A DNA stretch of 64,000 nucleotides, from the NCBI RefSeq assembly GCF_056746865.1, contig NZ_CM163382.1; one strand, 5' to 3'. The position numbers were made by a program. This document shows positions 15,001-18,000 of this stretch, piece by piece (the first letter of the stretch is position 1; every line of letters begins with the position of its first letter).

Positions 15001-18000
15001 ATAAACATATACAACTTTGTAAAGGTGGTTATAATAAACCTGATTACTTTAACGTCTGTATACCTGCACTGCTGATATCACAAAACAATAAAAATCCTGG
15101 TTAATATCTCTGATGATTGAATGAGAAATTCACGATGTCTGGTGAGAATTCTGTTCAAAACGAGGAATGCAGACGTACATGTGGCAGGCATGGACTTCTA
15201 CCAATTTAACTTTTTTCCTTCCTTGTATTTACACATTGCACATTTTGCGCTACAAAAATTTCACGTGGCACGCACCACGTGATCCGTAGAAAAGCCTCTT
15301 GTTACGAATTTCGTAAACCGCACGTCTGTCTGGTCGTGCGGATTTTTTATCCGTCAACTTCACATGAAACCCGCCAGAGCACTGTTTCCGGATTCAGACA
15401 TCAGGCATATTATTATCCACGATGTCGTGAACAAGATCACACTTTTGCAATTCCTTTATTGATCGAAAGCAGTTAATCACGGAAATTAATTACCGGAGTG
15501 AAAGCATTTGCTATATAAACATTCCCAGAAGACATCTTCATGTTGAATATTATTCCCTTATTGACTAGCCCCTCTGACAGAATTTCAGAGGGGGTTTTTT
15601 ATCAGTTTCACCATCCAACCCTGTACGCCAGAATGGTTTCACTGTCACTCAGTTCTGCTATTGCCTTTTTCATCTCCCTTTACCTTACGTTCTGCCAGAG
15701 TCTGAGCCATTTGAAAATAACATTATCATTGACGCCATTTTCACGTGCAATCTGTGCAACACAAGCTCCAGGTTGTGATGCCAGTTCCACCATACGAAGT
15801 TTGAATTCATTCGAATAGTTTTTACGAGGTTCTTTTCGCCAGTCCTGTAATTCCATACTTAGATGTCCGTCTATATCAGATGGGCGTCTAAGTTACCAAT
15901 TCTCGTCTGATGGCTACATACGGCGGTCAGTTTACGCTTACGATGGAAAGAGTCTTTCGCAGCCTTAAAAGTGAATGGTTTCCGAAAGGTGGTATGGTGA
16001 TTTTAGCCATGCGGTACGCGATATAAACCAGTGGATTAATGGTTATTATAACGTTTATCGACCTCACACGAACAACGATGGTTTACCGCCTTGGCTACAT
16101 GAAGAAAAGTGGAAACAGGTTATCCCGGTGTCCTGATTTTGTGCTCAACTACAACTGTCCAACTTTTTGGAGTCAGTACACTCTTACGTCCGGCTCACCG
16201 GAGGGGCTATATTCTACCCCTCCTTCTCTCTGCAGCATCATCGATGGCTGTTATCAGAAGGAATACCTGATACCCAGTATTCCTTCCGCATCCGTCTTAA
16301 AGTAACCATCAAAACTGCTGTTTACTTTCGCCTGCACTGACAGTTTCTCTGTCAGCTTTCCGTTGATACCAAACGAAACGGTATAGCGGTCAGCCTTCTC
16401 TGCATCATAGTGACGGGCTTTCCAGTCATCACGCAGGGTCATTCCGGGCATATCCTTCAGAGTGATATTCCGCCAGATACCTGCCTTCAGCGTCATATTT
16501 CCGGATACTTTTTCTGCCTCAAACCCGGCTTTCAGCCACAGGGCATCGCCATCATAAAGCTCCACGCTCCGCTCCCGGCCCTGCAGACGATTTCCGTCCA
16601 CCCGCGCACCGTTCAGTGAAACAGTCGGTGTTATCGACATATCAAGGGGGGCTGCATGCATCTTCCACCCGCTACGGATACCCGCTGTCAGGATAGGGCT
16701 TTTTGCCCTGCCGGACAGGTCACTCAGCTCTCCCTGAATAGTGTAATCTTCAGACAGCTCCCGGTATCCGGTCATACCATCCACAAACAGACCACCGGCA
16801 AAGGATTTGCCCGCCAGAACATGCACTCCCCACAGGCTGAAATCATCCCGGTAGTCATCTGTGCTGCTGTGCCCCCGGTAAAACTCTACCCCCATCCCCC
16901 ACCAGGCATTACCGGCAGCAGACTGGCGGAATCCCACATTCAGTCCACTCTGATTGAGGCTGAAGTCGTCATATCCCCCATGGCTGTACCCTGTCATGGC
17001 CCATGCACCGCCGTCTGCATCACTGTTGTCCACCACCTGTGTCCAGCGGTCAGCACTGTCGCTGAGAATGAACTCACGGGCGGCAAACATGGCACGCGCT
17101 TTCTTCAGAAGAGATGTGTTATCCGCGCCCTTAAACAGCGTACTGCCATTCACCATCGTGCCCGCATTCTCTGCCGGAGAATCAGGGGAAGGCGACACAC
17201 CGTTGCTGTTATTTCCTTCAGACACAATAACATCAGCCTCAGTGCTTCCTGTACTCCCTGTATCCGGTGCAACCGGAGAGGTTGTATCTGTCACATCATC
17301 ACTGACATCCGTTGATACCTGAGATTCTGTTGTTCCGGCATGACTTTTCAGTTGCCAGTAAACTCTGCCGTCTTTCTCCTGCACCTGTGTGTCAGGGGTA
17401 TAAACAGTAAACCCCCTGTTCAGACTGGCAAAGGAGAAGTACCCGTGAGAAGTTCCGACCGGTGCAGATGCCAGAGTCAGGTCATTTTTCAGTGTGACAG
17501 TCTGATCAAACAGGGAGGACAGGTCCAGTGTGTTATGTCCCCCCGTTGCCTTATTCAGGATATCAATCCGGTCGCCCGTGTTGTCGGCGGTGCTGACCCC
17601 CATGGCGATATTCATACTGCTGGCATGCAGTGTGTTTACCGTCAGCGTTTTCGGCGACCAGTTGTCTGTCACAAAGGAGAGCGTCCCGCCTTTGCTTCTG
17701 AACGAATCCAGCGTGGAGCTTTTCGTCATATTCCAGTGACTCCGGCGCGACAACTCCACATGCGAGCCGGCATGACCGCTGATATCACCATTAAAGGTTG
17801 CGTTCATGATATCCAGCGTCGTCTTCCCGTACAGAACAGCACTGCCATTAAACACGCTACGGTCTGCATCCTTCACCGCTTCTGATGTGCCTTCTTCCAG
17901 CGTAAAAGCCGTACCGTTACCGTCGTTTTTGTCAATAAAGACCCGGCTGTCGCCCAGTGTGACAGTCGAATCTGTTGCTTCAAGCGTGGTGTTCAGCATG

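Follow-up and report, generated by a model that had tools for sequence, protein, structure and literature searches.

Reversed intrinsic terminators at a tfa-eib junction: a possible prophage-derived barrier carried with an adhesin cassette

What do two terminators do upstream of an adhesin gene, on the strand that the gene does not use? In the 64,000-nt stretch of DNA analysed here (the window), two hairpins with T-runs, T1 and T2, stand on the plus strand beside an Eib-family gene read from the minus strand. A preliminary description proposed that they end one or two short non-coding transcripts, possibly regulating the divergent adhesin. We favour, with roughly even confidence, another explanation: T1 and T2 would be tandem one-way terminators at a tail-fibre/eib junction, derived from a prophage and carried by the island together with the adhesin cassette (features in Table 1).

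Table 1. Features of the locus and of its second copy, in positions of the window.
Feature	Position	Strand	Remarks
Eib-family adhesin gene, 5' remnant	14263..14829	-	189 codons
Non-coding block, ~855 bp	14830-15682		directly upstream of Eib-family gene; copy 2 at 49423-50277
eib-proximal module	14830..15442		eib control region, CACGTG repeat, T1; copy 2 at ~49423-50036
Biallelic patch	14975..15075		symmetric conserved TTATAATAA motif inside; copy-2 allele at ~49568-49668
Inverted repeat TCACGTGG-N6-CCACGTGA	15250..15282	-	followed by AATTTTT on the minus strand; copy 2 at 49843-49875
Small hairpin TTACGA-ATT-TCGTAA	15303..15317	+	between CACGTG repeat and T1
T1 copy 1	15318..15348	+	7-bp GC-rich stem, 10-nt loop, A + T6
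tfa-proximal module	15443..15607		125 nt + T2; copy 2 at ~50037-50202
T2 copy 1	15569..15600	+	9-bp stem, 7-nt loop, G + T6
tfa (DUF4376) 3' remnant	15608..15691	-	last 27 codons + TGA at 15610-15608; copy 2 at ~50203-50286
IS66-family tnpA 5' fragment	15683..15867	-	truncates tfa in the island lineage
Complete Eib-family trimeric autotransporter gene	47656..49422	-	588 aa, YadA anchor, six 99-bp repeats
T1 copy 2	49911..49941	+	identical to T1 copy 1
T2 copy 2	50162..50196	+	10-bp stem, 8-nt loop, T7

Folding and a scan of the window both confirmed two strong plus-strand hairpin and T-run elements opposite the adhesin gene. The stem arms of T1 are CCGCACG (15318-15324) and CGTGCGG (15335-15341), with the T6 at 15343-15348; folded alone it reaches -14.3 kcal/mol (z -3.45), and none of 200 shuffles was equally stable. 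Those of T2 are CCCCTCTGA (15569-15577) and TCAGAGGGG (15585-15593), with the T6 at 15595-15600, giving -16.6 kcal/mol (z -2.9) in copy 1 and -18.0 kcal/mol (z -4.7) in copy 2. Both have the stem-loop and T-run (at least 5-6 T, 0-2 nt after the stem) by which such terminators are recognised, and the T-run is found on the plus strand only: read on its minus-strand side, T2 gives CTAGTCAATAAGG, which contains no T-run. Scanning the whole 64-kb window on both strands for hairpins of -12 kcal/mol or lower, followed within 2 nt by at least five T, gave eight sites, against 0-3 in block-shuffled windows. Six of the eight are T1, T2 and a minus-strand site (15282->15261) across the two copies of the block, so that the block holds three of the five distinct strong terminator-like sites in the window. 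Judged by their sequence, T1 and T2 appear to be genuine, canonical strong intrinsic (Rho-independent) terminators on the strand opposite the adhesin gene. Inspection of ORFs and promoters revealed no plus-strand gene and no conserved plus-strand promoter upstream of either.

The reported duplication near 49911 and 50163 was also borne out, T1 being identical in the second copy and T2 having a longer stem. It spans the entire intergenic block, beyond the hairpins, at 94% identity over ~1.1 kb. The neighbouring adhesin gene does lie on the opposite strand, but a full-length one stands beside block copy 2 only; at copy 1 it is a remnant that ends at a sul2-strAB-tetA-floR/ISCR2 resistance module. 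Elsewhere, the block is found in lambdoid prophages, a P4-like element and genomic islands, and it keeps 93-99% identity in front of eib paralogues whose N-terminal protein identity is just 53-67%. We counted ~510 occurrences in 370 of 5426 complete E. coli genomes (7%). As to whether the hairpins persist in orthologous regions, the T1 segment is at least 99% identical in 368 of the 370 E. coli genomes that have it, but T1 is missing beside a different adhesin 5' region. The block was detected in no representative of another species: T1 was not found in 100,044 species-representative genomes, which gave six chance matches in unrelated MAGs only; phages yielded no homologues, plasmids one E. 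coli record, and IMG/VR one contig with T1 and 0 matches to the T2 pattern. Our literature search found no paper containing the block sequences. That the block hardly varies could be due to recent spread and not to selection.

The block is made up of two modules that meet sharply at ~15443, with T1 on one side and T2 on the other. We considered whether the T1 flank is a diverged duplicate of the tfa-end/T2 flank and rejected it, as the local alignment score of 22 was matched by 19 of 300 shuffles. A partial match (H65) was likewise dismissed as a T1-only context, being an IS600 insertion into the block. T1 is essentially invariant in ~500 copies, and co-variation in T2 is seen in stem length only, its C-run and G-run shortening jointly in variants. 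A 29-bp indel affects the sequence immediately before the T2 stem, yet the stem itself is preserved.

T2 adjoins the end of a phage gene. The C-terminal 27 aa of Tfa are encoded at 15611-15691 on the minus strand (tblastn E 4.7e-13), and the T-run of T2, which is oriented against tfa, lies 7 nt from the tfa stop codon. An intact tfa occupies the same position in prophages L007 and L014, with the gene order J-lom-stf-tfa-block-eib in prophages. In L014, T2 with its 125 nt is retained by tfa beside a different YadA-like gene without T1. Comparison of these loci indicates that T1 and T2 are not one unit, T2 being tied to the tfa 3' end and T1 to the eib 5' module; the "conserved pair" of the preliminary description is thus conserved in both members wherever the block occurs, but not as a pair. 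Two other origins for this side of the block were discarded. An inverted tfa' remnant, as in invertible tail-fibre segments, had as its sole plus-strand tblastn match 17 aa (E 0.31), not reproduced in L014; and T2 is not part of the IS66 fragment, since homology to IS66 tnpA begins only at ~15683.

Is a reversed terminator after tfa a peculiarity of this block? We surveyed 49 IMG/VR loci with Tfa relatives (55-67% aa identity), 40 of them with downstream sequence, for an antisense-oriented terminator no more than 90 nt from the first in-frame stop. Such a terminator was present at 33 of 40 loci as scored (~31 of 38 without L064 and L065, artefacts of internal in-frame stops), in a set whose loci are not independent, many being near-identical prophages. 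A sense-oriented terminator followed tfa at only 5 loci. The reversed hairpins represent four or more unrelated sequence classes, non-homologous to T2, and at L031 the hairpin lies at the end of the prophage, with tfa on one side and host genes on the other. In phage lambda the tfa gene is not followed by such a reversed terminator, which makes the feature a lineage-restricted one. That T2-like reversed terminators of unrelated sequence recur directly behind tfa in other prophages speaks for selection of the layout.

This recurrence weighs on the unlikely alternative that T1 and T2 are inert relics, the terminators of genes, since deleted, that formerly separated tfa from eib or stood in the eib module's donor, preserved only through recent spread of the cassette. 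Relics would agree with the composite block and its sharp boundary, with the second-hand state of the cassette in the window (tfa and IS66 reduced to stumps, eib truncated), with the near-zero sequence variation expected of recent spread, and with the narrow distribution among E. coli genomes. They are harder to reconcile with unrelated reversed terminators at the same place in other prophages, with a T2 stem that stays intact and changes in paired length beside a variable flank, and with the lack of any detected plus-strand coding remnant upstream of T1 or T2.

In the tandem-terminator explanation that we favour, T1 and T2 would act only on the strand opposite eib and tfa, as a barrier between the tail-fibre operon of a lambdoid prophage and the eib adhesin "moron". 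T2 would be a feature of the phage backbone, a reverse terminator directly after the tfa stop codon that may halt transcription from the moron or host side before it runs antisense into the late genes. T1 would be part of the eib 5' control module. It faces, at ~60 nt, the inverted repeat at 15250..15282, which by its sequence looks terminator-like toward transcription arriving from the tfa side, suggesting two transcription domains insulated both ways. Any plus-strand RNA ending at T1 or T2 would be a short non-coding transcript, divergent or pervasive, from the AT-rich eib control region; this is most likely, a dedicated regulator being less likely. The cassette, comprising the last 27 tfa codons, T2, T1, the eib promoter region and eib, would have moved from a prophage to a genomic island, and in the window, where it is present twice with no tail operon left to protect, T1 and T2 would be passengers. 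What the sequences show is the anatomy and conservation of the block, its junction with tfa, the separate modules of T1 and T2 and the recurring layout; plus-strand transcription, and insulation as the function under selection, are what we infer. Insulation leaves the origin of T1 unexplained, and the lack of a robust conserved plus-strand promoter tells against it as well.

The surroundings of T1 also point elsewhere. The stretch 15258-15356, with the CACGTG repeat, the small hairpin and T1, folds at -31.7 kcal/mol (z -3.05), and this three-hairpin context looks like a typical small RNA 3' domain, which counts against insulation. Plus-strand non-coding transcripts are plausible because of the strong terminators, the lack of a conserved ORF and the conservation wherever the block occurs; to that extent the preliminary proposal stands, but no robust conserved promoter and no Rfam match came to its support. 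A possible though doubtful alternative is that one or two dedicated small RNAs, divergent from eib, exert control over eib or over other genes, through base pairing or by binding a protein. The first would be ~85-310 nt long, ending at T1 and containing the CACGUG hairpin, the small hairpin and the terminator, and T2 would terminate the second. Strong terminators with U6-7 tails on a gene-free strand, the structured three-hairpin stretch and two candidate promoters speak for this reading, as does invariance in ~500 copies across three kinds of mobile element, next to coding sequence with only 53-67% aa identity.

The absence of a conserved ORF is also in line with a small RNA. We checked every ORF of at least 20 aa within 14900-15720: none is conserved, all are at most 65 aa long and none has a Shine-Dalgarno sequence. 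The ORF through the first hairpin, described as lacking a ribosome-binding site, proved to be so: this GTG ORF (15279-15476) traverses T1 and lacks a Shine-Dalgarno sequence, and one natural variant carries a frameshift in it. Natural deletions remove 1 nt at 15371 in L011 and at ~15224 in GF124.3, and 84 bp in prophages L007 and L008. Small protein genes in the block were rejected on these variants and on the missing ribosome-binding sites.

The promoters are less favourable to a small RNA. Promoter prediction, proposed as a check, gave no robust conserved plus-strand promoter. The best-scoring candidate, TATACA-16-TATAAT at 15008-15035 (10/12 match), is present in one allele only, and a second, TTTACA-17-TACAAA at 15228-15256, found by eye and without the -7 T, is removed by the 84-bp deletion in L007 and L008. 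The first lies in the biallelic patch, whose two alleles are ~55% identical and carry promoter-like matches in opposite directions. As an invertible promoter switch the patch was rejected, the alleles aligning collinearly and not as reverse complements.

Further evidence stands against dedicated small RNAs. T1 is missing upstream of a related adhesin cassette, and T2 is accounted for by the tfa junction. Rfam gave 0 matches in the whole window at gathering threshold, and a permissive scan of the block only chance-level ones (best 28.7 bits, for a cut-off of 60). T1 is near-invariant, so that it offers no variation for covariation, and it is absent from the species representatives. The regulation suggested for the divergent adhesin found no support: between -201 and +100 of eib, the longest perfect complement is 10 nt and AT-only, and that at the start codon is 8 nt, both near shuffle expectation. 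Duplexfold, applied to pairing with the eib leader, returned unrealistic full-length duplexes. In addition, eibG was expressed from a published construct with just 168 bp of upstream sequence, so that T1 and T2, which are farther away, fall outside the eib 5' UTR.

The CACGTG repeat raises the question of DNA-level sites. That the hairpins are protein-binding inverted repeats in DNA, such as an operator bound by the ParB-like IbrB or by the sigma-like HTH protein whose gene follows eib, is in our view very improbable. The CACGTG-containing inverted repeat (15262-15281) resembles parS in its CACGTG core; 84 bp upstream of it stands a related direct repeat, CAYGTGGCAsGC. The window has 14 matches to this 12-mer where 9 are expected, which is no enrichment, and the natural 84-bp deletion takes out one repeat. 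A binding site would moreover concern the CACGTG repeat and not T1 and T2, whose T-runs and GC stems are typical of terminators. IbrAB has been reported, as relayed by a citing paper, to activate eib (Sandt et al. 2002), which fits such a site. A more far-reaching possibility strikes us as decidedly unlikely: the invariant three-hairpin stretch ending at T1 (~15262-15348, plus strand) would be a new prophage-borne small RNA transcribed divergently from eib, and either this RNA or its CACGTG repeat, as a parS-like site for the ParB-like activator IbrB, would switch Eib expression (IbrAB dependence, static versus shaken growth).

If the tandem-terminator reading is true, its meaning is mostly ordinary: T1 and T2 would be unannotated intrinsic terminators. 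Island eib genes of E. coli would nevertheless bear a scar of prophage origin, 27 tfa codons and a reverse terminator, found also at the eib remnant beside a chromosomal multidrug-resistance module. This scar would trace the movement of the adhesin cassette among prophages, the P4-like element and genomic islands. Many lambdoid prophages would have a reverse terminator directly after the last tail-fibre gene, which suggests a general means of keeping antisense transcription that enters at the prophage's accessory-gene end out of the late genes. Were a small RNA to end at T1, it would be the first entry point into the regulation of Eib adhesins, of which (IbrAB, static growth) little is understood.

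Several known systems can be compared with this locus. FinO-domain proteins bind structured terminator hairpins, and the FinP/FinO system of F-like plasmids, an antisense RNA with its FinO-family chaperone, comes to mind because a ProQ/FinO-family gene lies ~200-300 nt past T2 in the island. Here, however, a frameshift has made that gene a pseudogene, and the prophage and P4-like contexts carrying the same block do without it, so its proximity is secondary and a partnership was rejected. Small RNAs are encoded near prophage accessory genes, such as IpeX beside nmpC (DLP12), DicF (Qin), IsrK (Gifsy-1) and AgvB/AsxR (EHEC). The block shares with them a short, strain-restricted non-coding stretch in an accessory region and an intrinsic terminator, but it differs in having no Rfam match, conserved promoter or target complementarity. 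Tandem and face-to-face intrinsic terminators have the same GC-rich stem-loop and T6-7, here with two in tandem and a third facing them; unlike these, T1 and T2 have no upstream gene on the terminated strand and oppose their neighbours eib and tfa. Finally, the morons of HK97/HK022-type lambdoid phages are promoter-gene-terminator cassettes inserted between phage genes. The likeness lies in the position of eib after the last tail-fibre gene of lambdoid prophages, in its own control region and in the mobility of the cassette. Since T1 and T2 stand reversed in front of the moron gene, they would not be the moron's own terminator but would mark where the moron meets the late operon.

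The presence of two hairpin and T-run terminators on the plus strand, T1 and T2, upstream of the genes for Eib-family trimeric autotransporter adhesins (eib), was confirmed as first described and is far from chance. Isolated folds of copy 1 gave -14.3 kcal/mol (z -3.45) for T1 and -16.6 kcal/mol (z -2.9) for T2, and those of copy 2 gave -14.3 and -18.0 kcal/mol. T2 ranked top in a terminator scan of a 5-kb stretch, from which T1 was missing solely because its loop exceeds the 8-nt limit of that scan. When the whole 64-kb window was scanned on both strands (hairpin of -12 kcal/mol or lower, then at least five T), eight sites were returned, compared to 0-3 in shuffled windows; T1, T2, and one minus-strand site (15282->15261) account for six of these, with one of each in either copy. 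The second copy was likewise confirmed, and the duplicated unit goes beyond the hairpins to a whole block of ~1.1 kb, at 94% identity.

Features of the block and its adjoining eib genes (window positions)
Feature	Copy 1	Copy 2	Strand	Description
T1	15318-15348	49911-49941	+	CCGCACG-N10-CGTGCGG, then A and six T
T2	15569-15600	50162-50196	+	Copy 1: CCCCTCTGA-N7-TCAGAGGGG, then G and six T; copy 2: 10-bp stem, 8-nt loop, seven T
Inverted repeat	15262-15281	49855-49874		TCACGTGG-N6-CCACGTGA
Direct repeat	15178-15189	49771-49782		CAYGTGGCAsGC, related to the inverted repeat, 84 bp upstream
eib remnant	14263-14829			189 codons left of an eib-type gene
eib		47656-49422	-	588-aa trimeric autotransporter, YadA anchor, six 33-aa repeats; adjoins copy 2 on the left

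The window is DNA of E. coli. Among 5426 complete genomes of this species, 370 carry region 15080-15620, in 514 places altogether, all of them chromosomal and with no annotated feature beneath; the plasmid collection contained one occurrence of the block region and the phage collection none. Some 860 bp of the block are kept at 93-99% identity upstream of eib paralogues that are only 53-67% identical over their N-terminal 215 aa. The block is found in lambdoid prophages (order J-lom-stf-tfa-block-eib, tfa being a tail-fibre assembly gene), in a P4-like element, and in islands adjoining transketolase genes, and is absent from an Enterobacter eib-like gene. Its distal 80 nt are the 3' end of a prophage tfa (DUF4376): the final 27 amino acids of Tfa align with minus-strand positions 15611-15691 (E 4.7e-13), the stop codon follows at 15610-15608, and IS66 homology starts only at about 15683, so the cassettes in the islands derive from a prophage. 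In the P4-like context (L011/L012, 2982-3221), the C-terminal residues of Tfa form the end of a 79-aa ORF that is annotated as antiterminator Q, a chimeric junction which shows recombination of the eib cassette into a Q gene.

T1 and T2 had been taken for one conserved pair, yet they can come apart. In L014, a prophage of strain LH50-c, the block is matched from ~15443 onwards, through T2 and into tfa, while the YadA-like gene beside it has an unrelated 5' region, with neither T1 nor any other plus-strand terminator before T2. T2 is therefore part of the tfa end, and T1 part of the eib 5' module. An IS600 insertion at ~15445 in another locus (L073, 5367-6600) falls almost exactly on this module boundary. 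The T1 segment is found in 504 places, at least 99% identical in 368 of the 370 genomes, and the T2 segment in 510. Slight variation exists in T2: C-run and G-run are shortened in step (the shortened variant still folds at -14.7 kcal/mol), and a 29-bp indel lies directly upstream. Among 100,044 species-representative genomes T1 is absent, the only matches being six chance ones in unrelated MAGs. That both terminators are inert relics seems unlikely to us.

A comparison set of 49 IMG/VR loci with Tfa relatives (55-67% aa identity) showed no homology to the T2 module downstream of tfa, except in one contig carrying the block itself. An opposite-strand hairpin and T-run lay at most 90 nt from the first stop in frame in 33 of the 40 loci having downstream sequence (~31/38 once L064 and L065, artefacts of internal in-frame stops, are removed) and a sense-oriented terminator in five only, counts to be read bearing in mind that the loci are phylogenetically non-independent. 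Read on the tfa strand, an A-run directly precedes most genuine reverse terminators, and the hairpins represent no fewer than four classes that are unrelated in sequence (ATGGGGGA..TCCCCCAT, AGGGGC..GCCCCT, AGGGGAGC..GCTCCCCT, and GGGGGTGA..TCACCCCC). Across L018-L063, they abut the tfa stop, within the first 60 nt, in most DUF4376-type Tfa prophages. In L031, opposite-strand host genes come after the hairpin, which thus stands at the prophage end.

The preliminary description had proposed one or two short non-coding transcripts, possibly with a role in regulating the divergent adhesin. Three hairpins form when 15258-15356 is folded (z -3.05), which would suit a small RNA but also inverted repeats that work at the DNA level. 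A dedicated small RNA is still doubtful: a search for a known family in Rfam gave no match, and complementarity between the plus-strand RNA (15042-15601) and eib -201..+100 is at chance level; the regulatory role finds no support. Nor does the block hold any credible or conserved ORF. A promoter candidate picked by eye (TTTACA-17-TACAAA, 15228-15256) lacks the -7 T and is lost in prophages L007 and L008 through an exact 84-bp deletion between the flanking direct repeats. The sole plus-strand site meeting the prediction rule (TATACA-16-TATAAT, 15008-15035) is present in one allele only of a 100-bp biallelic patch. T1 and T2 lie about 490 and 740 nt upstream of eib and are unlikely to be inside its leader, since plasmid-borne eibG was expressed with no more than 168 bp of its upstream DNA (2025 preprint). 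This disfavours a FinP-like cis-antisense role. As for a FinP/FinO-type partner, the candidate beside the block, a ProQ/FinO gene, is a pseudogene and does not accompany the block in prophages.

The two patch alleles (14975-15075 and 49568-49668) are ~55% identical, amid sequence that is 99-100% identical, and each occurs in prophages as well as in islands. Common to both is the symmetric motif TTATAATAA, which scores as a promoter on the plus strand in one allele and on the minus strand in the other; the patch is possibly a promoter region of eib that works in both directions or is diversifying. The CACGTG core of the inverted repeat, a putative protein site, resembles parS, and IbrB, an activator of eib, is ParB-like. 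A reading as DNA-level protein sites is highly improbable.

Named relatives of the intact eib product are immunoglobulin-binding (Eib) proteins. Six tandem 99-bp repeats (48125-48897, core 99% identical) encode the 33-aa coiled-coil units of its stalk, whose number probably varies among paralogues, given their lengths of 361 to 588 aa. IS2 and an IS4-family element (IS421-like) lie just downstream (44706-47568), a position taken in other genomes by a 151-aa sigma-70 region-4-like HTH gene, always after eib-type genes. The copy-1 eib was truncated to its 5' stump by a chromosomal multidrug-resistance module (5373-14262; ISCR2 fragment, DUF3363, floR, lysR, tet(A)/tetR, strB, strA, sul2). This junction recurs in many E. 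coli chromosomes from poultry, pig, and human, with up to 6-8 copies per genome; in the same island of strain AR_0085, IS66 elements replace module and stump. An IS66-family tnpA stump stands on the right of both block copies. On the copy-1 side, IS3 and IS66 fragments separate the block from the gene immediately to its right, for a serine protease autotransporter of 1291 aa (Peptidase_S6, SPATE; 16254-20129, minus). On the copy-2 side, the stump is followed by the ProQ/FinO-family gene (~50480-50990, plus) and an AlpA/YfjJ/YfjI-type island backbone. The ProQ/FinO-family gene appears to be a fixed pseudogene, as it is frameshifted in this window and likewise in every E. coli island examined.

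The best-supported reading, to which we give an even chance, is that the two terminators form a tandem barrier, derived from a prophage, that blocks transcription in one direction only. T2 would be a phage reverse terminator closing the tail-fibre operon; T1, facing the minus-strand terminator-like hairpin, would mark the boundary of an eib control module, and plus-strand RNAs stopping at either would be by-products. In this window both would be passengers of a transplanted cassette. They are terminators of an ordinary kind, unannotated and present in only about 7% of E. coli genomes; what is new is modest, namely a prophage scar shared by all eib cassettes and the repeated occurrence of a reverse terminator behind tfa. 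Phage lambda, unlike these DUF4376-type Tfa prophages, has no reversed terminator after its own tfa, and for this reason, together with the non-independence of the loci, we regard the layout as recurring within this Tfa lineage and not as universal.
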